Shown in pieces: positions 33,716 to 61,825 of a stretch of DNA of 64,000 bases. This DNA is from a virus: positions 40,500-104,499 of the IMG/VR virus record IMGVR_UViG_3300036770_000877, one strand, 5' to 3'. The position numbers and the translations under genes are program-made. The stretch's first letter is position 1, and each line of letters starts with the position of its first letter. Below the pieces are notes generated by a model. That model searched no databases, was not told the origin of the DNA, and worked only from the letters and a program-made list of their open reading frames with translations.

Positions 33716-33774
33716 ATATGTTTTCTCCTTCTAATATCCTCAATGGATATTATATATTGTATCAGATAAATAAA

Positions 33775-33869
33775 AAATGAGCAGTTTACATGGCCATGCT
33801 CAGGGCCCTTATGCCCGCACTAAGCTATCCGCAAGAAAGGTAGAACGGAAAGTAACACGGCGGTGCACA
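33775..33869 (-). ncRNA. Putative sRNA: long hairpin with anti-SD loop plus 3' pseudoknot
   Basis: Own promoter TAGACA-N18-TATAAT (33904-33875); stems GUGC/GCAU, CCGC/GCGG, GUUA/UAGC, UCCGU/GCGGA; loop UCUACCUUUCUU; ends in pseudoknot plus U-tract. Confidence 0.6.
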
Positions 33870-33882
33870 TATTAATTATAGC

Positions 33883-34305
33883 CTATTTTATTTTAATTTG
33901 TCTAGGCTTTTTCTCTTCTGGAATTTCTCTTTTTAGAACTACATAGAGAATTCCATCATTGTAGTCAGCAGAATCTACTTCCCAATACTCCCAAAGAGTA
34001 ATAGTTTTAGCAAACTTCCGAGTTGCAATACCCTTATGTAGGTACTTTGGCTCTTCTTCCTGCTTTTCTTTTTCTCCTGAGATAGTTACAACATCGTCTT
34101 CGATCTTGATGGTTAGCTCGTCCTTTGCAAAACCAGCGGTAGCTAGTTCAAGGACACGAGTATCCTCATCGATTTCTCTGATATTAAATGGCGGGTATGA
34201 ATCCTGCCATGATGTTGCCGTAGTAGTCCATGTTTGATTCCATAACTGATCTACGAACTTGAATGGGTCATAAATGCTGACCATTGAGTTATTGTAATTT
34301 ACCAT
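33883..34305 (-). CDS. Small heat shock protein Hsp20 (IbpA-like)
   Basis: YPPFNI, LATAGF, YLHKGIATRKF, ADYNDGIL, IPEEKKPRQIKI. Confidence 0.92.
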   Translation of the reverse strand: MVNYNNSMVSIYDPFKFVDQLWNQTWTTTATSWQDSYPPFNIREIDEDTRVLELATAGFAKDELTIKIEDDVVTISGEKEKQEEEPKYLHKGIATRKFAKTITLWEYWEVDSADYNDGILYVVLKREIPEEKKPRQIKIK

Positions 34306-34310
34306 TTTTG

Positions 34311-34327
34311 CTCCTTTATTAAGCGAG
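34311..34327 (-). promoter_or_regulatory. ROSE-like RNA thermometer over the hsp20 RBS
   Basis: mRNA CUCGCUU-AAUA-AAGGAG: UCGCU pairs with the SD leaving a bulged G. Confidence 0.65.
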
Positions 34328-34333
34328 TTTAAA

Positions 34334-34360
34334 TTAGCACTCCCCGAAGCAGAGTGCCAA
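34334..34360. promoter_or_regulatory. CIRCE element (HrcA operator) upstream of hsp20
   Basis: TTAGCACTC-N9-GAGTGCCAA, 1 mismatch to consensus, just downstream of a TGATATAAT -10. Confidence 0.9.
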
Positions 34361-34524
34361 CTATATTATATCATCTGGATAGAGGTCTAGCCAGTCTGGG
34401 CCATCTTCCCTATCACATCTACCATCATTTTTTTTATTTCTACTCATATAATCATAATATCATATGGAGTGATCAGTGCGCCGAAAATATGACACCCCCA
34501 ATAAATATGCCGTATAATAGCTAT

Positions 34525-34869
34525 ATGAACCTATACGATCAATTAACCCCCGTAGAGAAAGCCTACCACGATGCCTTGCTTTCAGTAGTAGATAAATTTG
34601 GACCTTTCGATAAGGGCAGCGGATCTGTCTGGGTCGGATATGAAGATGGCTCTAATAATGAAAATGCCTCCATTGGAGTAAAATGCGGAAACTGCTCCTT
34701 CCATGTAGAAATGCAGGGGATGTCAGAGCTAGGATGTAAAATTTTATCCTTTAAGGTAGAAGAAAATGGATTATGTAGATTGGCTGCTATTCCAGATGGA
34801 TTAGTGAATGCCGAAAATGATAACACCGATAATGAAAATATGGATAAATTCTGGAAGGGCATATTCTAA
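34525..34869 (+). CDS. Cys-rich hypothetical protein (HiPIP-like Cys spacing)
   Basis: CGNC...C...VEENGLC; leaderless after TATAAT at 34513. Confidence 0.55.
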   Translation: MNLYDQLTPVEKAYHDALLSVVDKFGPFDKGSGSVWVGYEDGSNNENASIGVKCGNCSFHVEMQGMSELGCKILSFKVEENGLCRLAAIPDGLVNAENDNTDNENMDKFWKGIF

Positions 34870-35249
34870 TGTATACTTATTACACTAAAATTGAAAATGT
34901 CGTCGATGGCGACACTGTAGATGTTTTTATCGATCTTGGCTTTAAGGTATGGAGATCAGAGCGTATTCGCCTTGTAGGGGTAGATACAGCCGAAAAGAAT
35001 ACTCCCTATGGCAAAGCTACCAAGGCATACCTTACCCAACTTTTGGCGGGGAAGCTCGTAAAACTCGAAGTCTTTAAACCAGATAAGTACGGTAGATACC
35101 TAGGTAAGATATATATCAATAGCGATATTTCGATCAATGACCAAATGGTAGCTAAAGGTATGGCTAAGGGTTATATGGGAGATTCCAAAGTAGGACTTTG
35201 GACTCAAGAAGAGCTTAATAAGACTACTATAGATATTACTCTGGAATAA
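34869..35249 (+). CDS. Thermonuclease (SNase-like)
   Basis: VVDGDTVD, RIRLVGVDT, DKYGRYL. Confidence 0.88.
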   Translation: MYTYYTKIENVVDGDTVDVFIDLGFKVWRSERIRLVGVDTAEKNTPYGKATKAYLTQLLAGKLVKLEVFKPDKYGRYLGKIYINSDISINDQMVAKGMAKGYMGDSKVGLWTQEELNKTTIDITLE

Positions 35250-35780
35250 AGTCATCTAGGGCAAGGAGAATTTCTCTTGCTATCCCGTCGAAATTTATTG
35301 ATCCATTATTAAAATACTTACCTGACTGTATAAGCTTTTGTAGCGTATCAGCTAGATATTGCTGTTTTGTCATATCCCGTCCTCCTAATTTATTAGACGT
35401 AGATAATCAATTATAAGTTATATAGTCATTATTAGCAAAATACTCTATATGCCCTGTTTATTTATATATTGGTATTTTGTTAATAAAATTTTAAATTTTA
35501 CAAAGGTGTTTTCGTATATAGCTATGGGATCCTATTTTGAAAATCCCCCCACCCTTTCCATATTTACCAAAATGTTAGTAAATTTTTAATTTGTATGATG
35601 CAGCATTTTGCGATGTCCGATTTGTCCTAATAGCGAGCACAGATTTGTGAGCAAGGTCACAAAGTTTTTTTTCAAAATGTCCGATTTATCCGTGTTGTCC
35701 CCTTGAAAATGTCAGACCCCTCTGCTAGACTTTAGTCATAGAAAGTTGATAAAGGTTATCAACAAAGAAAGGAAAACAAA

Positions 35781-35993
35781 ATGTTTTCACTAAGTTATAA
35801 AATTCAATCAAAGTCCGAAAGTAATGTGTTCGGCACTTGTCTAGGTGTCGTGTTCGATACCGAACAAAAGGCTTGGTCATATCTTGACCTAGTAGAAAAG
35901 GATAACTACATCCTTGAATGTAATCTAAAAGAATTAGAAAACTACAAGCCTAGCAAGCGTGTAGTATTCGCTACTACTAGAAGTTGGGAGTAA
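35781..35993 (+). CDS. Early hypothetical protein
   Basis: AAGAAAGGAAAA RBS after the first promoter. Confidence 0.75.
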   Translation: MFSLSYKIQSKSESNVFGTCLGVVFDTEQKAWSYLDLVEKDNYILECNLKELENYKPSKRVVFATTRSWE

Positions 35994-35997
35994 TTCA

Positions 35998-36198
35998 ATG
36001 AATGAACAAACTCTACTAACTAAAATGGGTTTCTCTACTCATTCCGCCGTTTCATCTTCTATCGTATCCGATGGGTGGGAGCGTTTTGCCACCTGCTCAA
36101 AATGCGGTTTAGATATATCTGCCTTTTGGGTAGATGATGAAGACCGCCTTAGCGGTTGGTCATCTTGGAAAGCCACTAGTGGCTTATGCCAGGCGTGA
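35998..36198 (+). CDS. Early hypothetical protein (CxxC)
   Basis: ORF track. Confidence 0.6.
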   Translation: MNEQTLLTKMGFSTHSAVSSSIVSDGWERFATCSKCGLDISAFWVDDEDRLSGWSSWKATSGLCQA

Positions 36199-36305
36199 TA
36201 TAAATCACATCCAGCTCTCGGCGTGTCGCCTTGATATTGTCGGGAGTATCTGATAGTATTTACATATACAAATAAATAAATAAGAACCTAAAGAAAGGGG
36301 ACAAA

Positions 36306-36506
36306 ATGTCCGCAAATGTATATTCAATCGAAAACCTATTAGTAGGTAAAACCTATCGCTCAAATAGCCTAACAGGTGAAATAATCTCAGCCGAGCCTCA
36401 CCCTAAAGGTGTATGGTATGAGGGTTGCGATTCCTACTTAGTAGAAATCCGTAATGCTAATGGCGGTTATTCTTATCGCACAATAGCGGTAAAGGTAGGT
36501 GAGTAA
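36306..36506 (+). CDS. Early small beta-rich protein
   Basis: AAGAAAGG RBS; paralog of 39294..39509. Confidence 0.75.
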   Translation: MSANVYSIENLLVGKTYRSNSLTGEIISAEPHPKGVWYEGCDSYLVEIRNANGGYSYRTIAVKVGE

Positions 36507-36508
36507 TA

Positions 36509-36667
36509 ATGAAAATCACTTACTCAATATGGCAGGGCTCTATTATCAAGGGCTCAGGATTCACCGCCTCTAAAATGTCGGAGGTCGCTGATACAATAAA
36601 AGAACTAAACGCAACAGACACTAAACCAAAGTTTGAGGCGTATATTAGCAAAATCGAACAGAACTAA
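36509..36667 (+). CDS. Early hypothetical protein (52 aa)
   Basis: MKITYSIWQG...; below the ORF-track cutoff. Confidence 0.55.
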   Translation: MKITYSIWQGSIIKGSGFTASKMSEVADTIKELNATDTKPKFEAYISKIEQN

Positions 36668-36685
36668 CGAAAGGAAAACTAAAAA

Positions 36686-36850
36686 ATGGAAATACAAATC
36701 GAATTCTCAAAATGGGGTTTTGGTTTTTACTCTGATTTTCTTGCGCTAGATTTTACTTGGGGTTTTCTTGGCTCTCTTGTAGTAATCTATTTCGTAAATA
36801 AAATTCTAAAGCGTAATGAAATAAAATTATTTCGTAAAAGAGTAAAATAA
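36686..36850 (+). CDS. Early small membrane protein (54 aa)
   Basis: GAAAGGAAAA RBS, one TM, basic tail. Confidence 0.6.
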   Translation: MEIQIEFSKWGFGFYSDFLALDFTWGFLGSLVVIYFVNKILKRNEIKLFRKRVK

Positions 36851-36851
36851 A

Positions 36852-37022
36852 ATGATGACTAGAAAAGACTACATCACCGCTGCGGATATTCTAAATCAAG
36901 CATATCCAGAAAATCCCGAACTAATTTTAGAGATGGCTTCTGATTTCTCTGATTATTTCGCAAAGGATAATCCTAGATTTTCCCGCCCTCGATTTTTTGA
37001 GGCAGTAAAAAAGGGCTGGTGA
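36852..37022 (+). CDS. Early hypothetical protein (MTRKDY...DNPRF type)
   Basis: Motif pattern seen in small phage proteins. Confidence 0.65.
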   Translation: MMTRKDYITAADILNQAYPENPELILEMASDFSDYFAKDNPRFSRPRFFEAVKKGW

Positions 37023-37065
37023 GATAACTCACAAAACTGATCGGCGTGTCGCCTTGACAAATCTG

Positions 37066-37089
37066 CGACACGCCCGACAGCGGCGGGCC
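37066..37089 (+). repeat. 24-bp GC-rich repeat CGACACGCCCGACAGCGGCGGGCC, copy 1
   Basis: Identical at 39103 and 40344. Confidence 0.95.
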
Positions 37090-37091
37090 TT

Positions 37092-37107
37092 TCGAACAGA
37101 TGTTCGA
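37092..37107. promoter_or_regulatory. Actinobacterial SOS box (LexA site)
   Basis: TCGAAC-AGAT-GTTCGA, perfect match to TCGAAC-N4-GTTCGA. Confidence 0.8.
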
Positions 37108-37252
37108 TTTAAGAGAGCCCCAAAATGTGGTGTAAATCACAAAACAAAATGTCCGATTTATCCGATTACTGGTCAGTAAATGTCAGTGGTCTATGGTAGG
37201 ATACTAGGTATCAAGATGAGATAAAGGTTATCTCAAAGAAAGGTGGTCTAAA

Positions 37253-37465
37253 ATGGCTACATTAGAAATATTCGAAATGAACGAAAATGGTGCTGGTTGG
37301 GTATCATTAGAAAATGCTTCACAATCTACAAAACTAGATTTGGAATTAGCAATCATAACAAATGCTCCCGTGCAAATGTTGTGCTTCAAATGTCATACAC
37401 CAATTCCAAAAGGAAATGTGTGTTTCAATCATAAAAATGTGAGAGGTGGTATCTACCTTGACTAA
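37253..37465 (+). CDS. Early Zn-finger-like protein
   Basis: AAGAAAGGTGG RBS, CFKC...C..H. Confidence 0.7.
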   Translation: MATLEIFEMNENGAGWVSLENASQSTKLDLELAIITNAPVQMLCFKCHTPIPKGNVCFNHKNVRGGIYLD

Positions 37466-37564
37466 AGATGTTTTTGGATTTGAAAATGCAATTCAATTAG
37501 ACCATTTAACTTTAGAAGAGTTAAAAGAATTAGAAAATATTTTAGAAAAAATAAAATAATTTTT

Positions 37565-37637
37565 GGTGCGTTAGATTAGTGGTTAAATCACTACACTGTC
37601 ACTGTAGAGATCATGGGTTCAAATCCCATACGCATCG
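37565..37637 (+). tRNA. tRNA-Asp(GTC)
   Basis: Acceptor GGTGCGT/ACGCATC, anticodon arm CTACA-CTGTCAC-TGTAG, GGTTCAAATCC; no encoded CCA. Confidence 0.85.
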
Positions 37638-37644
37638 CTAGCTG

Positions 37645-37668
37645 CGACACGCCCGACAGCGGCGGCCC
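37645..37668 (+). repeat. 24-bp GC-rich repeat, copy 2 (1 mismatch)
   Basis: CGACACGCCCGACAGCGGCGGCCC. Confidence 0.92.
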
Positions 37669-37677
37669 TGTGGATAA
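37669..37677 (-). promoter_or_regulatory. DnaA box
   Basis: TGTGGATAA = TTATCCACA on the minus strand, intergenic; second perfect copy at 48052-48060. Confidence 0.55.
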
Positions 37678-37851
37678 CTTTGTCAATACGACACGCCGTA
37701 AAAACGCTGGAAATTTTTGTGATTTCTAACACAATGTGACGCACAACACATGTGATGTGGCTCACAATGTCCGATTTATACCTATTTTCGGCGGGAAAAT
37801 GTCAGTCCCCCCTGCTAGAATTGTGGCATAGAAAAAAGAAAGGATAACTAA

Positions 37852-37980
37852 ATGAAAATTTGTTGCTTCTGCGAAATTGACTTAGATAATGACGCTAAGT
37901 TTTGCTGGAATTGCCTAGAGTATAAAGGCGTAATGTCCGTTGAGGATTTTGAAAAATACTATGGAGAAAGGATTTCCTAA
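37852..37980 (+). CDS. Early Zn-ribbon peptide (42 aa)
   Basis: AAGAAAGGA RBS; CCFC...FCWNC. Confidence 0.65.
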   Translation: MKICCFCEIDLDNDAKFCWNCLEYKGVMSVEDFEKYYGERIS

Positions 37981-38072
37981 TGTCAGATTATCTTGATTAT
38001 CTAGATGAAATCTACGAGGAACTCGTAGACGAATTCGGTCATGAAATTGAAAGTAATTGTATTCATGACTAA
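37980..38072 (+). CDS. Early acidic peptide (30 aa)
   Basis: AGAAAGGA RBS; MSDYLDYLDEIYEELVDEFG. Confidence 0.55.
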   Translation: MSDYLDYLDEIYEELVDEFGHEIESNCIHD

Positions 38073-38171
38073 AATGTGAGGTATCTCACACCGACACTAG
38101 GGGCTAAATCCCCCAAAATGTCAGCCCCCAATGCTAAAATTGTATCCATAAAATAAAGAAAGGAAGTCAAA

Positions 38172-38354
38172 ATGACTTACACGATTAGACTAGAAACCTT
38201 CAATGGTTCAGTATCCAAAATCAACCTACCTTCTAAAGGTGCGGTTGCTCAATTCATCAACACTTATCCAAATCAACTCCCTGTCGGTATTTCCGTCAAG
38301 TTTGATTGCGACTTGCTCGGTGTTCGTGGTGTTCTAAAAGGAAAGGGAAAATAA
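38172..38354 (+). CDS. Early hypothetical protein
   Basis: Promoter at 38119 plus AAGAAAGGAA RBS. Confidence 0.75.
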   Translation: MTYTIRLETFNGSVSKINLPSKGAVAQFINTYPNQLPVGISVKFDCDLLGVRGVLKGKGK

Positions 38355-38355
38355 A

Positions 38356-38547
38356 ATGGAACTTTCTACACTAAATAAAATCAGCGATTTATTCAAGCAA
38401 CTAGAGGAAAAAAGATTTCCTAATAGTTCATCAAATAGCACGACCTCAATGGCTCGACAAATCGGCACAATGTCGGTTTTCGTTTCAGAAAAAAATGCTA
38501 AGCAAATAATTAAAATGTTAGAAAGAGAAATTGGAGAAATTGAATAA
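38356..38547 (+). CDS. Early hypothetical protein
   Basis: ORF track, GAAAGG RBS. Confidence 0.65.
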   Translation: MELSTLNKISDLFKQLEEKRFPNSSSNSTTSMARQIGTMSVFVSEKNAKQIIKMLEREIGEIE

Positions 38548-38699
38548 TGAAAAAAAATGTTTTAATCTCGTATGTTGTAGAGGCTGATACCGACCTATCC
38601 GCTATCTTTGCTTTACAAAAATCCCTGCGCTATTTACCTGATAGCGAATTAATTAAGTTTGACGCTTTCGAAGTTCTAGAAGTAAAGGAAAATAAATAA
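38547..38699 (+). CDS. Early hypothetical protein (50 aa)
   Basis: TAATG coupling on both sides. Confidence 0.6.
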   Translation: MKKNVLISYVVEADTDLSAIFALQKSLRYLPDSELIKFDAFEVLEVKENK

Positions 38700-38968
38700 T
38701 GATTAGCACCGCTCTAAAAATTCAAGACGCAACACAAAAAGCCGTTATGGATGAAAACATAATGAAAATGGCAGGCTTTATTTATACTCATAGAAATGAT
38801 GTTGATGACGAAATGATGGCTAAAATCATTTTTGAATATTCCGCAAATTTATCTGCTCTCGTTGCTACTTTGGTAAGCGAAGCAATTTTATCAGAAACCC
38901 AAATGAAAGAAATGATTTCAGAAATCGAAAGTTTTGAAAAAATTTCTAAAGAAGTTTTAGGAGAATAA
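38699..38968 (+). CDS. Early helical protein
   Basis: ORF track. Confidence 0.7.
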   Translation: MISTALKIQDATQKAVMDENIMKMAGFIYTHRNDVDDEMMAKIIFEYSANLSALVATLVSEAILSETQMKEMISEIESFEKISKEVLGE

Positions 38969-38969
38969 A

Positions 38970-39083
38970 ATGACAACAAATAGAATTTTAACAACGCTGG
39001 TTCAATTAATTTTAGCTGGCGTAACAATTCCACTTTTAATTTTAGCGATTAAAGATTTTAAACACGATCTAAAAAATAGATAG
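38970..39083 (+). CDS. Early single-TM peptide (37 aa)
   Basis: AGGAG RBS, hydrophobic stretch. Confidence 0.55.
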   Translation: MTTNRILTTLVQLILAGVTIPLLILAIKDFKHDLKNR

Positions 39084-39102
39084 TTTAATTTTCAACTAAA
39101 TC

Positions 39103-39126
39103 CGACACGCCCGACAGCGGCGGGCC
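39103..39126 (+). repeat. 24-bp GC-rich repeat, copy 3
   Basis: Exact copy. Confidence 0.95.
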
Positions 39127-39293
39127 TGATTTGTCCGATTTACGGCATTATGTCCGTTTTGCCAGAATTTCCAGATTTTTTTGTGAAATTTATCACACGA
39201 CACGCCGTATCAAAATATGAGATTACTTACGAGTAGGTTGAAAAATGTCAGTGGGTTTTGGTAAACTTGTAGGTATAAAGAAAGGAAAAACTA

Positions 39294-39509
39294 ATGCGTT
39301 CATACTCAATTGTAGATTTGCTAGTAGACCAATACTATGCGCCTACTTCTCTCCGCCGTCGTTTCAACGGAGGTATCATAAACTTTGCGGAAAAGCGTGA
39401 AGATGTCTATTTATCTGAAGGCTATGAAGCCTTCGCTATTCGCTTCCGCCCTACGGGATCTTTTCAAGACCAATGGGCGACAGTTGCCGTCAGGGTTTCC
39501 GACTACTAA
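39294..39509 (+). CDS. Early small beta-rich protein
   Basis: AAGAAAGGAAAA RBS; paralog of 36306..36506. Confidence 0.75.
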   Translation: MRSYSIVDLLVDQYYAPTSLRRRFNGGIINFAEKREDVYLSEGYEAFAIRFRPTGSFQDQWATVAVRVSDY

Positions 39510-39557
39510 ATGTCGGAGGCTTCTGCTAGACTTGTTCTATAAAGAAAGGAAAAGAAA

Positions 39558-39719
39558 ATGTCTGCTATAAAAAGACTAATTGAAAACATACTCGCTTGTG
39601 ATACCTGCTATGGAAAAGGTTTTATGGGTTGGGTTTCTCCAGACGGAGACTATGACTTTGAGTATTGCGATTGTAATCCTCATAACCTAGTTTTGGAAGG
39701 AAGCGAGGTAATTTTCTAA
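39558..39719 (+). CDS. Early Zn-finger peptide (53 aa)
   Basis: Promoter at 39511, RBS, CDTCYGKG...CDC. Confidence 0.65.
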   Translation: MSAIKRLIENILACDTCYGKGFMGWVSPDGDYDFEYCDCNPHNLVLEGSEVIF

Positions 39720-39829
39720 TGGAAATTTTTCTCTGCGATAAATGCGATACTCTCGCCCAAGTATCCCGAATTGGTGATACAATAAAAATAACTAAGTGTG
39801 CTTGCCTAGCACTAGATTGGAAAGACTAA
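39719..39829 (+). CDS. Early Cys-rich peptide (36 aa)
   Basis: CDKC...CAC, TAATG coupling. Confidence 0.5.
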   Translation: MEIFLCDKCDTLAQVSRIGDTIKITKCACLALDWKD

Positions 39830-40038
39830 TGGACTACTTATACTCGCTAACTATCTCCTATGACGGAGAATTGGTTTCAACAACCCGCTCATCGGATTTG
39901 CTAGAAATAGTAAATGCGTGGAATAAATGCGTGGACTTTGGAGATGCTAAAGAATACGCAACCTACAATTTATCAGACCCTAGTGGTAAGATGTATACCA
40001 AGAATTTCTACAGAAATGGAGTAGTAAATGGGAAGTAA
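39829..40038 (+). CDS. Early hypothetical protein
   Basis: Start reassigned to the ATG at the TAATG overlap. Confidence 0.65.
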   Translation: MDYLYSLTISYDGELVSTTRSSDLLEIVNAWNKCVDFGDAKEYATYNLSDPSGKMYTKNFYRNGVVNGK

Positions 40039-40306
40039 TCTATCAACCGAACTATCAAGTGGGCTATTGGATTTGGATTTGGAGCAACAGATAACTATTC
40101 AGTTGCGTTCTAATCATTACCCGCCCGTTCCGTATTCAATGGTTTCAGTTTGTATTGAAGCGATTGACGCATACAACGAAGGCGAACACAATAAAGAAAT
40201 AACTTTGCCTGAAGGCGTAAGTTGGCGTGGAAAAAATTCTGCACCTGCTTATTCAATTATTGACGGGCACCACTTGTGGGATTGGATTATCGAAAGCGAA
40301 TTGTGA
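40028..40306 (+). CDS. Early hypothetical protein
   Basis: QLRSNHYPPVP...HHL motif. Confidence 0.7.
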   Translation: MGSNLSTELSSGLLDLDLEQQITIQLRSNHYPPVPYSMVSVCIEAIDAYNEGEHNKEITLPEGVSWRGKNSAPAYSIIDGHHLWDWIIESEL

Positions 40307-40343
40307 TCTAAATCATAAAAGCTGCGGCGTGTCGACTTGACAA

Positions 40344-40367
40344 CGACACGCCCGACAGCGGCGGGCC
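40344..40367 (+). repeat. 24-bp GC-rich repeat, copy 4
   Basis: Exact copy. Confidence 0.95.
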
Positions 40368-40448
40368 TCAAATGTCCGATTTATGAGCTTTAAGTAGAAA
40401 CGCCGAAATTTTGTGGAATGTCAGTGGGTTATGCTAGACTAGTTTATT

Positions 40449-40583
40449 ATGAGAAAGAAAACGACTGAGGAATTACGGCGACTAATGGAGTTGCGCCGTA
40501 GTAATGCAGCCACGCCTGTAAAAAATAAAAAGGCGTATTCTCGCAAGCGCAAGCATAAATGTCGCCCCTATGGTGTAGAATAA
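40449..40583 (+). CDS. Basic 44-aa peptide with ArfA-like motif
   Basis: Near-leaderless after the promoter at 40419; KNKKAYSRKRKHK. Confidence 0.55.
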   Translation: MRKKTTEELRRLMELRRSNAATPVKNKKAYSRKRKHKCRPYGVE

Positions 40584-40605
40584 AATAAAGAAAGAAAGGT
40601 GCCCC

Positions 40606-41325
40606 ATGAAACTAAAACGCTCTAATGATAGAAAGGTTGCAAATGCAGTCTCAAGAAATGGAAAAACCCCAACAATTGCCAACACTTTTGGATTGCCTGC
40701 TGGAAAAGACTTCTCGTGTCCTGGTGCCACTAGTGTTTGTGAAAGCGTTTGCTATGCAGGAAAACTCGAAAGAGTATACAAGGGAGTAAAGGCTGTCCTG
40801 CTGCATAACTGGGAACTCCTACGCAATGCAGATATGGAAACAATGTCTCTATTGATTGATGAGATGATTGTTGACTTTGTTGCAGATTGTGAGAAAAAGT
40901 CTGCAGATAAATTATTCCGTATCCACTGGGACGGTGATTTCTTCAATGACACTTACGCATACGCATGGAAGGCTGTTATTGCTAATCATCCCGACGTACA
41001 ATTTTGGGTATACACTCGTGTAAAGTCTGCTGCTCTAATTCTAAAAGATATTCCTAACCTATCACTCTATTATTCTACTGATGATGAGAATAAAGAAATT
41101 GCTCATGAACTAAAACTAAATGACGGTATTCGCCTTGCTTATCTAGGAAAAACTTTCGCTGTCACCGAAGACAAAATGAAAGAACTAACTGGCAAGCCTG
41201 GTGCAAAATGCCCTGAGAATGCAAAACGTATTCCGTTGATTTCAACTAACGGTAGCGCATGCGTGTCATGCGGTCTATGCGTTTATGGTAAAGCAGATAT
41301 TCGATTTAGCGCAACTAAAAAATAA
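40606..41325 (+). CDS. GP88-family (radical-SAM-like Fe-S) phage protein
   Basis: FGLPAG..SCPGAT.VC..VCYA, FRIHWDGDFF, FWVYTR, C-terminal CVSCGLC. Confidence 0.75.
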   Translation: MKLKRSNDRKVANAVSRNGKTPTIANTFGLPAGKDFSCPGATSVCESVCYAGKLERVYKGVKAVLLHNWELLRNADMETMSLLIDEMIVDFVADCEKKSADKLFRIHWDGDFFNDTYAYAWKAVIANHPDVQFWVYTRVKSAALILKDIPNLSLYYSTDDENKEIAHELKLNDGIRLAYLGKTFAVTEDKMKELTGKPGAKCPENAKRIPLISTNGSACVSCGLCVYGKADIRFSATKK

Positions 41326-41333
41326 GGAGAAAA

Positions 41334-41447
41334 ATGAAACTATACAATGCATACATGGCCCTGTACTTAGGAAATGAAGAACAACAACAAGCTGCACAAG
41401 AATATCTCGACTCCTTGGAAGAATTAAAAGAAGAGGACCAGGAGTAA
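41334..41447 (+). CDS. Early acidic peptide (37 aa)
   Basis: AAGGAG RBS. Confidence 0.5.
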   Translation: MKLYNAYMALYLGNEEQQQAAQEYLDSLEELKEEDQE

Positions 41448-41686
41448 TTGGGTTACGTATTTGTAGCTTTATCTGTTGGGATCTTCTTGGTCCCCGCCGC
41501 TATAGTTTATTTACTATATAAGAAAAGCTGAGGCCCGCCCCGCATAAAGCGATTTGTCAAATTACGACACTGTGATTTTTCCCACAAAAGTTTTTGAGAA
41601 AATGTCCGATTTGACCCATTTCTAAGTTGCGCTCTGTCGGTCTGAAATGCTAAACTATTATTACCAACAAACGAAAGGAAGCAAAA

Positions 41687-41836
41687 ATGGCTAAGACACC
41701 AAAAATCGGTGAAACCATTACAACTGCTCAGAGCAAAGTTTCTGGCGTTGTAAAGGAAGTCGTAAAGAACCCATCTGGCTCGGTGCGTGTTCGTCTTGAT
41801 GTAGAGGGCGAAACTCGCTGGACTACTATCAAGTAG
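41687..41836 (+). CDS. Early small SH3/KOW-like beta protein (49 aa)
   Basis: Promoter at 41635, GAAAGGAA RBS; paralog of 42449..42631. Confidence 0.7.
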   Translation: MAKTPKIGETITTAQSKVSGVVKEVVKNPSGSVRVRLDVEGETRWTTIK

Positions 41837-41851
41837 TTTATCAGATAAAAC

Positions 41852-41882
41852 TGACCTGAGCAAGTCAATGCTAAACTGCTCA
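41852..41882 (+). ncRNA. Small H-type pseudoknot motif
   Basis: UGAC-CUGAGCAA-GUCA-AUGCUAAAC-UGCUCA; covarying copy at 33807-33778 (-). Confidence 0.6.
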
Positions 41883-41943
41883 CCAAGTTTATTCTGTCGG
41901 TGTGGTCTGATAGAATAGTAATACCAACTAAGAAAGGAAAAAA

Positions 41944-42366
41944 ATGGCAAGAAACGGCAAGGCGATAAATGTAAAAATCGCTACAACCAAAGTAATCAAG
42001 GCACTTGAGGGTGCGTTGGCTAAATTGGAAACTGAGTATGCTTCACAAGAAGCAAACGAGGCTAAGTATGAAAAGGCTCGTAAGGCTTGGGCTAAAGAAG
42101 TGGGTAAGTTAGCACTTGCTCAAATCTCAAAGGCAGAGAACCTAACTGCTTCTAAACGCTACAACAACGAGGTAAATGTTGATTTCAACTTACCTGCTGG
42201 AACTATCGTTCTACCTGATGAACCTAAAAAGGATTTCACCACAATGAACGAGTGGAACTATCGTGAGCAGAAAGAGGAAATTGAGAACGCTATTCGTATT
42301 CTCAAGATGACCGACGAGGAAGTCGTTTCCACTTCAACTTACAACGCTATCGCTAGATACTTGTAA
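41944..42366 (+). CDS. Early helical protein
   Basis: Promoter at 41895, AAGAAAGGAAAA RBS. Confidence 0.8.
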   Translation: MARNGKAINVKIATTKVIKALEGALAKLETEYASQEANEAKYEKARKAWAKEVGKLALAQISKAENLTASKRYNNEVNVDFNLPAGTIVLPDEPKKDFTTMNEWNYREQKEEIENAIRILKMTDEEVVSTSTYNAIARYL

Positions 42367-58295: not shown

Positions 58296-58367
58296 AGCCC
58301 CCCGTCAGGATTGAACTGACGACCTTCCGCTTACAAGGCGGATGCTCTACCACTGAGCTAGGGAGGC
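58296..58367 (-). tRNA. tRNA-Thr(TGT)
   Basis: Cloverleaf, anticodon loop CTTGTAA. Confidence 0.93.
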
Positions 58368-58368
58368 G

Positions 58369-58440
58369 TAGCCCCAACGGGAATCGAACCCGTCTTGCCA
58401 GATTGAAAATCTGGAGTCCTGACCGATAGACGATGGAGCC
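58369..58440 (-). tRNA. tRNA-Glu(TTC)
   Basis: Cloverleaf, anticodon loop TTTTCAA. Confidence 0.92.
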
Positions 58441-58441
58441 T

Positions 58442-58515
58442 TGGAGCGGGTGACCAGAATCGAACTGGCACTATCTGCTTGGAAGGCAGAGGCACTACCA
58501 TTATGCAACACCCGC
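58442..58515 (-). tRNA. tRNA-Gly(TCC)
   Basis: Cloverleaf, loop CTTCCAA, encoded CCA. Confidence 0.93.
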
Positions 58516-58519
58516 ATTG

Positions 58520-58592
58520 CGCCCTTGGCAGGAATCGAACCTGCGACCTGCGGATTAGAAGTCCGTCGCTCTATCCCCTGAGCTACAAAGGC
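58520..58592 (-). tRNA. tRNA-Arg(TCT)
   Basis: Cloverleaf, loop CTTCTAA. Confidence 0.93.
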
Positions 58593-58593
58593 A

Positions 58594-58821
58594 TTATTCG
58601 ACGTAAACATCAACCAATCCATTAGATTTAAGCCAATCAAATGTTGCCATCAATTGTTCTCGTGTATCACAAACTTCACAACCATCATATAAATCATATG
58701 GCTCCCAACCTTCTCTAACATCCTCTTCATCATATAAATGCATGTAACATGCGTTTCTGTGATCAGTTACAAAAGCTTGGAGTTGTTCCGCCTGCTCTGT
58801 TGTTAGTTTAATTTCTTGCAT
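58594..58821 (-). CDS. Hypothetical protein
   Basis: ORF track, GCEVC. Confidence 0.6.
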   Translation of the reverse strand: MQEIKLTTEQAEQLQAFVTDHRNACYMHLYDEEDVREGWEPYDLYDGCEVCDTREQLMATFDWLKSNGLVDVYVE

Positions 58822-59306
58822 TACTTACTCCTAAGTGGATGTGTTGCCCAAAAGTACTGGCATTTGTCACAGCATGTAACATTGTATGGGCTTGATAACT
58901 CTGGCTGAAACTTAGCATAGTACAAAGGATCTTTCTTAAATAGATTTACTTTGTGTGTTGTAACAATGCACATTAACATTACATCGCTTTCCATCCAAAA
59001 TGGAATCTCGTTGCCCCACTTATGACCATATTCTGCTTCTAGTTGTCGTAGGTTAGACTTGTTTTTGTCTGTCTTGATACCACGCCATTCTGCTTCATAG
59101 ATCATATGACCAATGTATCGGCGTAGCTCACGCTCTGAGCGTTGCCACATAAGTACTGCTGGATGATTGCGCCATGCGCCAGATGGTGATGCGCCTGAAA
59201 GAACTTTAAGGATTTGGTATCCCTCTAGTATTTGTTTATTTAATCTCTTATTGTCAAGAGTTTGTGCTGATGCTTCGTAGTCTGAATATGGTAAGAATGT
59301 TTGCAT
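58821..59306 (-). CDS. Pyrimidine dimer DNA glycosylase / endonuclease V family protein
   Basis: MQTFLP, LDNKRLNKQ.LE..QIL, WRNHPAVLMW. Confidence 0.8.
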   Translation of the reverse strand: MQTFLPYSDYEASAQTLDNKRLNKQILEGYQILKVLSGASPSGAWRNHPAVLMWQRSERELRRYIGHMIYEAEWRGIKTDKNKSNLRQLEAEYGHKWGNEIPFWMESDVMLMCIVTTHKVNLFKKDPLYYAKFQPELSSPYNVTCCDKCQYFWATHPLRSK

Positions 59307-59398
59307 TCTATATCTTTCTCTAGTAGGTATATATTAAGTATAGACTATAAAAGAGGGGGAAGTCAAGAGCGGTGTGGTGGTGGAACTCTTGACCTCCC

Positions 59399-59475
59399 TG
59401 GCGATCCCAACCAGACTTGAACTGGTGACCTCCTGCTCGACAGGCAGGCGTTCTGACCAACTGAACTATGAGACC
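59399..59475 (-). tRNA. tRNA-Asp(GTC)
   Basis: Cloverleaf, loop CTGTCGA, encoded CCA. Confidence 0.92.
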
Positions 59476-59517
59476 TTGGTGGGGCTATTTATACACAGAC
59501 CCCATGTGTTGTTAAGA

Positions 59518-60612
59518 TTACTTAACTAGAGTTACTTTTGCCTTTGGATTCTTTGCATTCCACTTCTTAGCAAGAGCATTAAATGCCTTCTTTAGGTCTG
59601 CAAGAGCCTTGGCGTTGTCTGCCTTTAGCTTAACAATTTCTGCATCCTTAGATGCAATTGTTGCTGTTGCTGAGTCAGTTGCAGCCTTTAGGTCTGCTGC
59701 TGCCTTAGTTGCTGCTGCTGCAGCGTTAGCGTTTGCTGTTGCAAGTGCTGCTTCGGCTGTTGCCTTTGCTGCAAGTGCTGCATCACGAGCAGCAGATACT
59801 GCTGCTAGTTCGCCAGCCAAGTCACGGACTGTGATTGACTTTACTGCAGAAGATGTAACTGTGTTAAATCCTGCTACAGTTGCAGCGATTTCGGCTGCTG
59901 CTGCTGAAATTACAAGTGTTGTAGTTCCAGTTGTTGGAAGTGTAACCTTGAACTCCTTTGTACCGAAATCGGCCAAAGTAGATCCTGTTACTGCAGTTGT
60001 TGTATCAACTGTACCATTTACAACAAGTGCTGACAAAGCTCTTCCAGAAATCTTGTTTCCGAATACGTCTGTCGCTGTTGCTGTAACTGTTACAACGCTT
60101 GATGTTGAACCAGAATCATTGCCTGTAAGAGCAACTGTGTTGACCTTACCTGCTGTACCCTGAACATAGAATGTTAGAGTTGTTCCACCATTTTGGACAA
60201 CTACTGTTCCAATTGCTGTTGTCTTTGTGTAGACATAGAAGGTAGCAGTTGTTCCTGTACCTGTAGCAATTGTCAAAGAGGCTGAGCCTGATGATGCTGT
60301 TACTGGTGCTGCAAGTGTGCTTGTAGCTGCAACAATCGTTGCGTTTGTAGCAGTTGCTGTTACTGCTGTTCCTGTGTCAACAGTAGCAACGAACTTAACA
60401 ACATCGCTGTCGTCAATTACGTTATCTTCTGGGACTGGACGAGCAATAGCATTGCTTGTTGATGTACCTGTGGTCACAGTTGTCCAAGTGGTTACTCCAC
60501 CTGCTACTGCTCCCGTTGATGTTGCAACTGTCATTGGAGCCGCATGTGCTGGAACTGCAGCAAGTGCTGACATTCCCAATACAGAAGCGACTAGAATTGA
60601 TAGTTTCTTCAT
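59518..60612 (-). CDS. Secreted Ala/Thr-rich Ig-like surface protein
   Basis: Signal peptide MKKLSILVASVLG...PAHA, beta-rich core, coiled-coil and Lys-rich tail; start reassigned. Confidence 0.75.
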   Translation of the reverse strand: MKKLSILVASVLGMSALAAVPAHAAPMTVATSTGAVAGGVTTWTTVTTGTSTSNAIARPVPEDNVIDDSDVVKFVATVDTGTAVTATATNATIVAATSTLAAPVTASSGSASLTIATGTGTTATFYVYTKTTAIGTVVVQNGGTTLTFYVQGTAGKVNTVALTGNDSGSTSSVVTVTATATDVFGNKISGRALSALVVNGTVDTTTAVTGSTLADFGTKEFKVTLPTTGTTTLVISAAAAEIAATVAGFNTVTSSAVKSITVRDLAGELAAVSAARDAALAAKATAEAALATANANAAAAATKAAADLKAATDSATATIASKDAEIVKLKADNAKALADLKKAFNALAKKWNAKNPKAKVTLVK

Positions 60613-60672
60613 ATAGTTTTTTATATCCTTTTCTCTATATAGATTTTTGGACATATCCTTTTGGATATACCG

Positions 60673-60744
60673 CTGGTCTTCCTGGGATCGAACCAGGGGC
60701 CTAGGAGTTAACAGCTCCCCGCTCTGCCTCTGAGCTAAAGACCA
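60673..60744 (-). tRNA. tRNA-Asn(GTT)
   Basis: Cloverleaf, loop CTGTTAA. Confidence 0.92.
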
Positions 60745-60808
60745 ATAAAGCCACACAATTAACTATACCCTAATTGCAAGGGTTTTGGCAAGGGTCTTTT
60801 ATGAGAAA

Positions 60809-61255
60809 TTACTTAGAGTTGTATTTTCCACCACGACGCTTATATTCTGCCACCACCCAAGCATTTGCTACTGCTGAAGGATATACGTCAAATTTGCGCT
60901 TAGCTTCAGCGACTATTCTAGCATACAATTCTTTATTTGCTGGGGATCCTTTTCTTGGTTTAATAATGTTTCCATAGTTTGGCTTTGATGCTTTGGTAAT
61001 TACTGGACTAAATACTCCACCCCAAGCTAAAGGAGAATCTTCATTTTCTAATACCGCTTCACGCTCTTCTCCAGTAATTGGGTCCGTATCAGTGTCCATT
61101 GATTTATCCATAGAACCCTCATTTGCATAAAGAGCTCTTTGCTGTGCTAGTGCTTCTTCTCTTGTTTTATGGCATCCCATAACCTTACCGTCATCTTTTA
61201 CAACTGGGTATCCTGAACAACCGTTGGATCCTTTTTCTCCAATATTATATGGCAT
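60809..61255 (-). CDS. Conserved two-domain phage protein
   Basis: GCHKTREEALAQ..ALYANE; AKRKFDVYPSA.AN.W....YKRRGGKY. Confidence 0.7.
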   Translation of the reverse strand: MPYNIGEKGSNGCSGYPVVKDDGKVMGCHKTREEALAQQRALYANEGSMDKSMDTDTDPITGEEREAVLENEDSPLAWGGVFSPVITKASKPNYGNIIKPRKGSPANKELYARIVAEAKRKFDVYPSAVANAWVVAEYKRRGGKYNSK

Positions 61256-61394
61256 TATTCTTGCTCCTTTGTTTTGTATGTTTAACTAAATAAGGACCAA
61301 TAATAGCCTTTATGGTTCCGTCTTTACGTAGTCTAACAATCATTCCATTTTTAATTTGAGTAGGATTAAATGCAGTTGCTTTCTTCTTAGGCAT
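61245..61394 (-). CDS. Small basic protein (49 aa)
   Basis: GGAGG RBS, MPKKKATAFNP...VRLRKDGT. Confidence 0.55.
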   Translation of the reverse strand: MPKKKATAFNPTQIKNGMIVRLRKDGTIKAIIGPYLVKHTKQRSKNNAI

Positions 61395-61633
61395 TATTTT
61401 CCCTCCTCCAAAATTTTTTTTAATTCCTCGTCGATATTGTAATTAAATGATTCTTCAAAAGCTTCATCTAACATATCTGCAAGGATGTGTGGCAAGTTAA
61501 ATATAACTGCCTGCGCTAGCATTGGATCAGAATATCTTATATCTATCTTAATAGTATCGTTAGCTTCTAGGGTCATATTTATAGACCCGTCTTCGTCTTG
61601 ATAACCGCTAAGATTAAAGTTTATTCCTTCCAC
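61394..61633 (-). CDS. Acidic hypothetical protein
   Basis: ORF track. Confidence 0.6.
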   Translation of the reverse strand: MEGINFNLSGYQDEDGSINMTLEANDTIKIDIRYSDPMLAQAVIFNLPHILADMLDEAFEESFNYNIDEELKKILEEGK

Positions 61634-61748
61634 TGCCCCTCGCTTCCTTAGACAATTGTACCAAATTGGGCCCCATATGGCAATCCCTGCTGCACAGGCA
61701 GGATTTTGGGAGATGTGTAACTATCCATCCTAAGTAGGCCATATGGGG

Positions 61749-61825
61749 TGGTGCGCTGTGTAGGACTTGAACCTACGACGACCCGATTATGAGTCGGGGG
61801 CTCTAACCAACTGAGCTAACAGCGC
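61749..61825 (-). tRNA. tRNA with CAT anticodon (Met or Ile2)
   Basis: Cloverleaf, loop CTCATAA, encoded CCA. Confidence 0.92.

Follow-up and report, generated by a model that had tools for sequence, protein, structure and literature searches.

A widespread family of compact phage RNA pseudoknots with a coremin-like core at the boundaries of translation and transcription units

Small H-type pseudoknots are familiar from the preQ1-I aptamer (RF00522), in which an A-rich tail ends in AAC before the second helix, while the PeSL (promoter-early stem-loop) cassettes of T4-type phages are plain hairpins tied to a promoter. The closest described parallel to the elements reported here is the coremin motif (xrRNA-C), which is found in beny-, cucumo- and other eukaryotic RNA viruses and has a Watson-Crick variant, xrRNA-WCC, in Sanxia picorna-like virus 5 (PMC6546385, PMC10520033, PMC10321173). 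Its resistance to Xrn1 requires a second hairpin directly downstream (PMC6546385, PMC10520033, PMC10321173), and coremin also stalls scanning ribosomes and promotes -1 frameshifting (PMC10520033, PMC10321173).

The window analyzed here, a stretch of 64,000 nucleotides of viral DNA (positions 40,500 to 104,499 of IMG/VR record IMGVR_UViG_3300036770_000877), contains two sites that are members of a widespread phage RNA family, a compact H-type pseudoknot of ~27-31 nt (Table 1). The first-pass annotation had described a small pseudoknot motif present twice, and both of the sequences it quoted are indeed found in the window. In the family, the first helix (P1) has 3-5 bp with a C-G closing pair, a single L1 C crosses to the second helix (P2), P2 consists of 6 bp between UGAGCA and UGCUCA, and an A-rich linker, which would run back along P1, ends in AAAC. 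The pattern CTGAGCA-N10-22-CTGCTCA matches the window twice, with 0.02 matches expected from shuffles, and the whole 104.5-kb genome contains no copies of it beyond these two. Window sites at 22164 and 31549, which carry TAAACTGCTCA or a near match, were rejected, as they lie within coding sequence without the remaining motif. When the Rfam covariance models were run over the window, tRNAs alone reached the gathering score. An Rfam 15 search with E values up to 10 returned a few unrelated families near the copies, all far below gathering scores and none overlapping either knot, and the earlier remark that no family could be assigned therefore holds for Rfam.

Table 1. Coordinates of the two pseudoknots, their parts and the neighboring features within the window.
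Feature	Position	Strand	Basis
Promoter-like site, sigma-70 type, TAGACA-N18-TATAAT, 11/12 matches	33875..33904	-	consensus scan
Hairpin inside putative ~100-nt small RNA, 12-nt loop	33828..33849	-	sequence
Pseudoknot copy 1	33778..33807	-	sequence, pattern search, family covariation
Copy 1 P1, GGCC with GGCC	33807-33804 with 33795-33792	-	
Copy 1 L1, C	33803	-	
Copy 1 P2, UGAGCA with UGCUCA	33802-33797 with 33783-33778	-	
Copy 1 U following UGAGCA	33796	-	
Copy 1 linker, AUGUAAAC	33791-33784	-	
U-run UUUUUUAUUU, terminator-like tail directly 3' of copy 1	33768..33777	-	sequence
Extended -10-like element TGATACAAT	33756..33764	-	read from sequence
49-codon ORF ending in ETRWTTIK and stop	41687..41836	+	sequence, relatives
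Small A-U hairpin UUUAU-CAG-AUAAA, between stop codon and copy 2	41837..41849	+	sequence
Pseudoknot copy 2	41852..41882	+	sequence, pattern search
Copy 2 P1, UGAC with GUCA	41852-41855 with 41864-41867	+	
Copy 2 L1, C	41856	+	
Copy 2 P2, UGAGCA with UGCUCA	41857-41862 with 41877-41882	+	
Copy 2 A following UGAGCA	41863	+	
Copy 2 linker, AUGCUAAAC	41868-41876	+	
Extended -10-like element TGATAGAAT, between copy 2 and 140-codon gene	41908..41916	+	sequence
140-codon gene 3' of copy 2	41944-42366	+	

A fully covarying P1 had been claimed from the two copies, which alone could agree by chance, but the family shows that the pairing is kept. Using a pattern that left P1 pairing free, we obtained 81 distinct relatives from a viral collection, 75 of which have at least three perfect P1 pairs, and the double-sided changes in P1 numbered 51 compared to 18.9 ± 2.7 in shuffles (0 of 500 shuffles reached 51). 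For P2, the central A of the loop was forbidden and its partner left free. Among the 45 P1-bearing hits, this position is paired in 40 (G-C in 35, U-A in 2, C-G in 2 and G.U in 1) and the five non-pairs resemble GC-rich coding sequence; in hits without P1, the partner base is scattered. Additional P2 variants in the family include UAAGCA/UGCUUA and UGAGUA/UGCUCA. Since the U.G variants pair on the knot strand only, the constraint acts on RNA. The pairing of loop and tail, which had been singled out beforehand as the decisive point, is thus backed by compensatory changes, and the structural reading as a whole (an H-type knot with a conserved loop, a UAAAC linker, a loop-tail helix and a covarying P1) is supported by the covariation that both helices show across the family. 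P1 is 4 bp long in 229 of 318 family hits, and its closing pair, which was not fixed by the pattern, is C-G in 63 of 75 rows. A separate search in which P1 was fixed as GUC/GAC and everything else, including L1 and the linker, was left free gave 103 hits, with C as L1 in 102 and U in one, a linker ending in AAAC in 100, and GUUAAAC as the commonest linker.

The resulting core, GUC-C...GAC-GUUAAAC, matches that of coremin/xrRNA-WCC. Both coremin and the phage knot have a first hairpin of 3-4 bp, mostly GUC/GAC, with a C-G loop-closing pair (coremin also allows U-A), and both have C as the first loop base, although coremin tolerates U. The A-rich spacer ends in AAAC in both, and the commonest phage linker is the coremin spacer itself (PMC6546385, PMC10321173). 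In coremin/xrRNA-WCC as in the phage knot, the loop pairs with the segment after AAAC, and both types of element occupy untranslated or intergenic sites, often in tandem or multiple copies. The xrRNA-WCC GAG/CUC core lies within the phage UGAGCA/UGCUCA, and the loop pairing is antiparallel Watson-Crick in both, as the compensatory P2 changes indicate for the phage knot. Conversely, the phage loop has 8 nt (C-UGAGCA-N) rather than the 4-6 nt of coremin and departs from the coremin consensus YGAD / YGNNAD (6-nt loops), with U as its second base and six middle bases that pair canonically. P2 has six canonical pairs, whereas coremin/xrRNA-WCC have 0-3 (3 bp in xrRNA-WCC). The phage knots lack the additional hairpin on which coremin depends immediately 3' of its spacer: the 30 nt 3' of the knots are no better folded than shuffles (-2.23 vs -2.00 kcal/mol, p = 0.54), and a hairpin begins within 4 nt in only 68 of 311 cases. 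The carriers differ as well, being DNA phages whose hosts are without Xrn1 (an enzyme absent from bacteria, to our knowledge), compared to eukaryotic RNA viruses for coremin. By analogy with coremin/xrRNA-WCC and luteoviral knots, we infer that the loop bases form triples with the helices.

The luteoviral -1 frameshifting knots (BWYV, PLRV) are likewise compact and H-type, with a C-containing L1 of 1-2 nt and an A-rich L2 whose last bases ahead of stem 2 are AAA, but the phage knot has no upstream slippery site, stands behind stop codons or in non-coding RNA, and has a stem 2 of 6 bp instead of 3. In size and topology it also resembles the preQ1-I aptamer, another small H-type knot with an A-rich 3' tail along P1. 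A small-molecule-binding, preQ1-I-like riboswitch is nonetheless highly improbable. Even at E = 10, no Rfam covariance model matches either knot; the knot is not linked to queuosine genes, P2 does not contain a ribosome-binding site, and the loop and P2 sequences differ from those of preQ1-I. In addition, the knot is often found at RNA 3' ends or before promoters, and its position is tied to the upstream stop codon rather than the downstream start. The ligand-binding knot that the first-pass annotation had offered as one option is unlikely, because the class of the downstream gene is not constant and an expression platform is absent.

The family is carried by many unrelated phages and is absent from Rfam. 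Applied to 3.1 Mb of fetched viral loci, a general family definition gave 323 distinct hits, compared to 5 on reversed sequence. In short-query searches, the cultured phages with clean copies infect Actinobacteria, Firmicutes, Cyanobacteria and Rhodobacterales, and no Escherichia, Salmonella, Klebsiella or Pseudomonas phage was among them; knot queries against 28 Gb of E. coli genomes likewise gave no match. The four host lineages are known to have RNase J. In these cultured phages the knot is intergenic. For example, it stands behind the stop of a gene in Mycobacterium phage Labelle, Paracoccus phage ParMal1, Lentibacter phage ICBM1 and Synechococcus phage S-H35, and lies just 5' of the scaffold gene in Staphylococcus phage 80, Geobacillus phage D6E and Lactobacillus phage phiEF-1.1. 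Very high conservation of the L1 C, AAAC and UGAGCA across phages of such different hosts could mean that the knot is bound by a conserved protein of host or phage origin (an RNA chaperone, nuclease adaptor or regulator), with the invariant loop and linker bases serving recognition, not tertiary structure. We regard this as quite improbable, given that pairing and covariation are seen for the conserved loop bases, that in related solved knots such as that of BWYV the bases corresponding to the conserved single-stranded ones form triples, and that no common neighboring protein gene was seen, the flanking genes varying widely.

Relative to long ORFs, the knots are co-oriented in 262 of 318 cases and opposed in 13, and many lie inside operons, 20-60 nt before the next ribosome-binding site. 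Counted from the last base of the upstream stop codon, L1 lies at a distance of 9 nt in 45 cases and 10 nt in 27, with a sharp floor and only 4 cases below; 5-6 nt between stop codon and P1 are thus the minimal distances, held by 72 of ~307 knots and comparable to the luteoviral spacing of 5-8 nt to the A-site codon. At this floor, the first P1 pair would lie ~12 nt beyond the first nucleotide in the P site of the terminating ribosome, just outside the helicase site that Takyar and colleagues reportedly described in 2005, and the knot therefore need not be melted by that ribosome. The floor and the pile-up above it, with a geometry as in frameshift-stimulating knots, might also reflect a translation-linked element, which would stand at the mRNA entrance of the ribosome with the stop codon in the A site and affect termination, recycling or re-initiation, for example by preventing onward sliding and thereby uncoupling neighboring genes; the ribosome stalling and frameshifting by coremin (PMC10520033, PMC10321173) argue in its favor. 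Such a role seems unlikely to us, since the nearest stop is 19 and 79 nt away from the two window copies, well beyond the floor, non-coding small RNAs are also closed by knots, and the same floor is expected for any structure kept folded during translation of the upstream gene.

The 30 nt 5' of the knots fold better than shuffles (-4.21 vs -2.41 kcal/mol, p = 1e-20), and the 8 nt immediately 3' are G-poor and unstructured. At least six of these 8 nt are U after 34 of 311 knots, as opposed to 2 of 311 control positions. Knots also end promoter-driven small RNAs in several lineages, where they stand between the small RNA and the next promoter with no alternative hairpin. Together with UUUUUUAUUU directly 3' of copy 1, these features are compatible with a pseudoknot-type intrinsic terminator, in which P2 would close at the RNA exit channel and the U-run would release host RNA polymerase, ending transcripts rather than protecting them. 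This, too, we judge to be unlikely: 89% of the knots, copy 2 included, are without a U-run (present in 11%), a terminator scan calls none at either copy, and many knots are intra-operonic, some just before scaffold or capsid genes, where termination would be counterproductive. RNA-library contigs of relatives also bridge both copies, but as assembled contigs these cannot show RNA ends and are weak evidence. The knot acts as part of the transcript, on the gene strand, and is positioned where translation and transcription units meet.

Around copy 1, the promoter-like site overlaps the Hsp20 stop and would start a ~100-nt non-coding RNA ending in the knot. The hairpin inside this putative RNA carries CCUUUCUU in its loop (33840-33833), complementary to the AAGAAAGG ribosome-binding sequence before the gene at 41944, and similar CU-rich loops precede knots at loci L008, L036, L113 and L385. 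The TGATACAAT element stands between copy 1 and a 103-codon ORF, which is followed by the endolysin gene, and was missed by the consensus promoter scan because its -35 is weak. Around copy 2, homologues of the 49-codon ORF in many relatives are also followed by the knot, and the place of the A-U hairpin is taken in relatives by a covarying one (UUAGC..GCUAA, UUCCU..AGGAA, UUCCC..GGGAA). At the place of TGATAGAAT, relatives have promoters of the TTGATT-N17-TGCTAGAAT type, one of which was seen in a relative at the loose end at 41883. Both copies had been placed at transcript 3' ends, which is plausible: behind copy 1 come UUUUUUAUUU and an extended -10, and behind copy 2 an extended -10. Copy 2 has no U-run, however, and RNA-library contigs of relatives continue through both copies.

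When this phage is compared to relatives in RNA-library contigs, homology ends precisely at the borders of the motif, with joints at 41854 and 41883 and a loose end at 41883, as might be expected of a DNA-level element, either a shared boundary for recombinational module shuffling or part of a promoter. PeSL cassettes similarly combine a structured element and a host-type promoter between small early genes and coincide with mosaic joints; the phage element differs in being a pseudoknot and in having a promoter behind it in some lineages only. There is very little to recommend a DNA-level function, however, as only selection on a folded single strand would account for the strand asymmetry, the U.G pairs and the compensatory changes in two helices, family-wide there is no enrichment of promoter-like sites 3' of the knots (58 of 307 vs ~50 in controls), and mosaic joints at a conserved island may be a by-product.

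Of the functions originally suggested for the motif, analogy and context speak most for nuclease blocking or processing. We give an even chance to the family being a mechanically robust roadblock that defines stable RNA ends, acting on exoribonucleases first but also on ribosomes. Such a knot would be hard to pull apart for processive machines on RNA and would thereby fix stable ends. Copy 1 would cap, and with its U-run perhaps terminate, the promoter-driven small RNA behind the Hsp20 gene, while the message of the small-gene block would be capped by copy 2, immediately before the next promoter-like site. As to the direction of blocking, knots before promoters and at small-RNA ends suggest protection of upstream RNA, and those just before scaffold and capsid genes suggest protection of downstream RNA. 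That the knot resists RNase J, PNPase, RNase R or scanning by RNase E is conjecture. More tentatively, and with the balance of probability clearly against it, the family might represent the first class of exoribonuclease-resistant RNA in prokaryote viruses, namely a knot of the coremin type at which RNase J, perhaps along with further processive enzymes, is stopped, so that long phage transcripts are divided into segments of differing stability. This would fit the hosts of the cultured carriers from the short-query searches, which belong to lineages with RNase J and include no Escherichia, Salmonella, Klebsiella or Pseudomonas, and the position of the knot just before scaffold and capsid genes in the three Firmicute phages.

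Whatever its function, the family is large, sharply defined and missing from Rfam, and therefore merits a curated model. If RNA-degrading enzymes or ribosomes are indeed held up by the knot, it would be a portable 27-nt phage module that determines where message segments and small RNAs end and how long they last; we know of no such mechanism described for bacteria. It would also provide a compact part for stabilizing RNAs in bacteria, and would connect the RNA biology of phages with the exoribonuclease-resistant RNAs known from RNA viruses of plants, fungi and insects, via convergence or an ancient shared fold. Should it block RNase J, DNA phages and eukaryotic RNA viruses would share the same ~27-nt solution.

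Both copies of a small RNA pseudoknot (knot) quoted in the first-pass annotation are present in the window exactly as given there. Their joint pattern occurs twice in the window compared with 0.02 occurrences expected from shuffles, and no third copy exists anywhere in the 104.5-kb viral record from which the window is taken. Other sites carrying TAAACTGCTCA or a near match were rejected as chance occurrences in coding sequence, where the rest of the motif is missing. When a very loose knot definition was applied to the whole genome, it returned noise, with reversed sequence yielding as many matches as the real one. Single-sequence folding was not significant (z of -1.7 to +0.6) and was given no weight, since the program cannot draw knots. 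The annotation had been unable to assign the motif to a family, and there is indeed no Rfam family for it: Rfam 15 at gathering score recovers only tRNAs, while searches around both copies with E up to 10 gave just far-sub-threshold unrelated families, none overlapping the knots. Pistol, HDV-like, hammerhead, and twister ribozymes were rejected, as their helix order is wrong and the existing Rfam models gave no match.

Features of the two knots, their surroundings, and comparison loci (window positions unless a locus is named; P1, hairpin stem; L1, first loop base; P2, loop-tail helix)
Feature	Position	Strand	Detail
Copy 1 P1	33807-33804 with 33795-33792	-	GGCC with GGCC
Copy 1 L1	33803	-	single C
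Copy 1 P2	33802-33797 with 33783-33778	-	UGAGCA, then U 33796; UGCUCA
Copy 1 linker	33791-33784	-	AUGUAAAC
Hsp20 gene	33883-34305	-	one side of copy 1; on the other, 103-codon ORF, then endolysin gene
Promoter-like site	33875-33904	-	TAGACA-N18-TATAAT, 11/12 matches; strong; overlaps Hsp20 stop
Candidate ~100-nt non-coding RNA	33770-33868	-	behind Hsp20 gene; predicted start near 33868
Extended -10 element	3' of copy 1 and its UUUUUUAUUU	-	TGATACAAT
Copy 2	19 nt after 49-codon ORF	+	small A-U hairpin between
Copy 2 P1	41852-41855 with 41864-41867	+	UGAC with GUCA
Copy 2 L1	41856	+	single C
Copy 2 P2	41857-41862 with 41877-41882	+	UGAGCA, then A 41863; UGCUCA
Copy 2 linker	41868-41876	+	AUGCUAAAC
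Extended -10 element	3' of copy 2	+	TGATAGAAT; then ribosome-binding site of 140-codon gene
phrog_1392 protein	40606-41325	+	239 residues, cysteine-rich
tRNA genes, seven of eight	58296-61825	-	clustered
tRNA gene, eighth	37565-37637	+	inside small-gene block
Small RNA of L020	L020:5278-5400	+	~115 nt, knot at end
Small RNA of L044	L044:6790-6903		knot at end
Staphylococcus phage 80 knot	L465:1492-1535		degenerate
Geobacillus phage D6E knot	L471
Lactobacillus phage phiEF-1.1 knot	L472

We then scanned a viral contig collection with CTGAGCA and AAACTGCTCA as the sole fixed parts, leaving P1 unconstrained. Among the matches listed, total motif length peaks sharply at 25-28 nt, and in 75 of the 81 distinct hits the loop is closed directly by at least three perfect P1 pairs. 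The pair types in the family include GUC/GAC, GAC/GUC, GCC/GGC, CAC/GUG, CUC/GAG, AUC/GAU, and AGC/GCU. The alignment of these 75 P1-bearing hits contains 51 double-sided changes in P1 versus 18.9 +/- 2.7 after shuffling (0 of 500 shuffles reach 51), and shifting the P1 partner by a single column lowers pairing from 96% to 20-23%. The covariation proposed for P1 from the two copies is thus real, with double-sided changes across the family far above shuffles. P2 was tested separately because it had been fixed in the first search. Variant helices in the fetched loci are UAAGCA/UGCUUA, UGGGCA/UGCCCA, and UGAGUA/UGCUCA. In a scan that excluded A at the centre of the loop and put no constraint on the base opposite, the 45 P1-bearing hits comprised G-C (35), U-A (2), C-G (2), and G.U (1), with the remaining five unpaired and resembling GC-rich coding sequence, while the 54 hits lacking P1 were scattered over all base combinations. 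The proposed loop-tail pairing is accordingly supported by compensatory changes. As the U.G cases pair on this strand only, the selected object is the RNA of the gene strand, and we consider an element acting at the DNA level very improbable. With a general definition (P1 plus any 6-bp P2 behind C...AAAC), 323 distinct members were found across fetched viral loci totalling 3.1 Mb, compared with 5 on the reversed sequence.

A search that fixed P1 as GUC/GAC and P2 as UGAGCA/UGCUCA, with no constraint on the first loop base or on any part of the linker, gave 103 hits. Of these, 102 have C as the first loop base and 100 have AAAC at the end of the linker, GUUAAAC being the most frequent linker. 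A typical knot therefore reads GUC-C-UGAGCA-U-GAC-GUUAAAC-UGCUCA. This is close to coremin, a motif found in plant RNA viruses that reads GUC-C-GAA-GAC-GUUAAAC-UAC (PMC6546385, PMC10520033), and to its Watson-Crick variant, in which a loop GAG pairs with CUC after AAA (PMC10321173). As published, the coremin core stops both Xrn1 and ribosomes. Phage knots share its stem, closing pair, first loop base, AAAC, and loop-tail pairing, but they have neither the coremin loop consensus (YGAD/YGNNAD) nor the second hairpin needed for Xrn1 resistance, and are for these reasons filed as coremin-like rather than as coremin members. Folding of the 30 nt 3' of the knots does not exceed that of shuffles, and the first 8 nt are markedly poor in G. 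Our literature search found no paper linking coremin or exoribonuclease-resistant RNAs to phages.

Long ORFs around the knots have the same orientation in 262 of 318 cases and are opposed in 13, and most knots shortly follow a same-strand stop codon, with medians of 17 nt between the stop and the 3-bp core of P1 and 54 nt between the end of the motif and the start of the following ORF. Spacing between the last base of the stop codon and the loop C shows a hard floor, as 45 knots stand at 9 nt and 27 at 10 nt but just 4 are closer; the upstream genes in this count range from 46 to 859 codons. Given a 4-bp P1, this floor leaves 5-6 nt between stop and knot. For a ribosome whose A site is occupied by the stop codon, the first P1 pair would then lie just outside the helicase site. 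The knot is thus set as near the gene as is possible if the terminating ribosome is neither to melt it nor to be blocked by it. The same spacing could be read as the mark of a translation-linked element, which we regard as unlikely. A U-rich tail follows 11% of the knots versus <1% of control positions; such tails would suit a terminator, a reading for the knot that we hold to be similarly doubtful. Promoter-like sites downstream of the knots show no family-wide enrichment, and knot-plus-promoter is a trait of some lineages, the present phage included. Several lineages have a promoter-driven small RNA of ~100-115 nt that contains multiple hairpins with covarying stems of its own and ends with the knot as its final module.

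Homologues of the 49-codon and 140-codon ORFs flanking copy 2 are also followed by knots in relatives. Parts of the region appear as assembled contigs of relatives in six riverine metatranscriptomes, and each of the two copies is bridged by such contigs. These contigs belong to relatives, may in part be DNA, and cannot reveal where an RNA ends; neither depth nor uncovered stretches were taken as evidence. The edges of copy 2 (41854 and 41883) are the exact points at which homology between the relatives' contigs and the present phage stops, a pattern consistent with a conserved island flanked by exchanged modules. The first-pass annotation had placed both copies at transcript 3' ends; judged from sequence context, both are likely to lie at the ends of upstream RNAs, while the assembled contigs neither support nor refute the claim. 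No close relative emerged from near-identity, protein, and distant-DNA searches of a cultured-phage collection; the queries were the window region, both ORFs beside copy 2 (49 and 140 codons), and the small RNA of L020.

The candidate RNA containing copy 1 includes a hairpin whose CU-rich loop holds CCUUUCUU, then the knot, and then UUUUUUAUUU. The loop sequence resembles the 3' tail of 16S rRNA and is complementary to AAGAAAGG, a ribosome-binding sequence of the phage's own genes; similar CU-rich loops precede knots in the fetched loci L008, L036, L113, and L385. Masking of ribosome-binding sites is a possible function of this small RNA. Two further small-RNA families likewise end in a knot. 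The promoter-driven family of ~115-nt RNAs in L020 has several covarying hairpins, including a T-arm-like GGAGUCGAAUCUUC, and recurs in L003, L004, L015, L024, L035, L050, L052, and others. A TGCTATAAT promoter directly follows the terminal knot in this family, and in L020 it drives an Hsp20 gene. ARAGORN identified no tRNA or tmRNA in the family. The second promoter-driven family (L044, L073, L082, L072, and L031) has the core GUCGGGGGAGACAGCGAC, and tRNA clusters lie close by in these phages. Rfam returned no match for either family, the L020 and L044 RNAs included. In L051, L085, L098, and L115, a half-degenerate unit, UAGAC-CUGUCAAAU-GUCU-UUAAAC-UGGAUGA, stands in tandem ~45 nt upstream of a canonical knot, its loop-tail pairing mostly gone.

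The phage comes from freshwater and subsurface samples. The only hint at its host group is the phrog_1392 protein, whose closest matches, at 55-60% identity, are proteins from phages of Streptomyces and Mycobacterium; this is a weak pointer to Actinobacteria. Pattern hits in cellular genomes are mostly fortuitous, P1 accompanying 16 of 119 versus ~7 by chance, and knots of this family are thus uncommon beyond viral contigs. In 28 Gb of E. coli genomes, a 30-nt query, which detects only near-identical copies there, found no match. Four queries of 30-35 nt, of limited sensitivity, recovered clean knots from cultured phages of Mycobacterium, Arthrobacter, Synechococcus, Nostoc, Microcystis, Paracoccus, Lentibacter, Bacillus, Geobacillus, Lactobacillus, and gut Clostridia, a degenerate form from a Staphylococcus phage, and none from Escherichia, Salmonella, Klebsiella, or Pseudomonas phages. 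Given that sensitivity, the host pattern is only a lead. Hits in Erwinia and Vibrio phages were rejected for poor P1, mismatched P2, or an antisense position to annotated genes. Three unrelated Firmicute siphophages (Staphylococcus phage 80, Geobacillus phage D6E, and Lactobacillus phage phiEF-1.1) carry the knot shortly before the scaffold gene, with portal or minor-head genes on its other side; in phage phiJB, the corresponding stretch is annotated as 'putative promoter P5R'. Canonical knots with a U-run also occur on two rumen contigs (L270 and L316, genome_contigs) binned as Methanobrevibacter and a related genome; these contigs may represent viruses of archaea or phage assigned to the wrong bin.

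Among the single-stranded bases, one C and the AAA before P2 are invariant, and these are the positions that form base triples in solved knots of similar size; a very compact fold of high mechanical stability therefore best accounts for their conservation. We judge a protein site improbable and a riboswitch highly improbable. A stable fold of this kind could act as a roadblock to RNA-threading enzymes, and such a roadblock would fix stable RNA ends. The placement at gene and RNA boundaries, the strand specificity, the stop-codon spacing floor, and the published blocking by the coremin core all fit a roadblock, and we give this barrier role for the knots overall about an even chance. Different contexts favour different directions of protection. 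Knots ahead of promoters and at the ends of small RNAs favour a role in shielding the upstream RNA from 3'-5' decay, sometimes with termination, while those ahead of capsid genes, together with the host pattern viewed against the distribution of RNase J among host lineages, favour shielding of the downstream RNA from RNase J.
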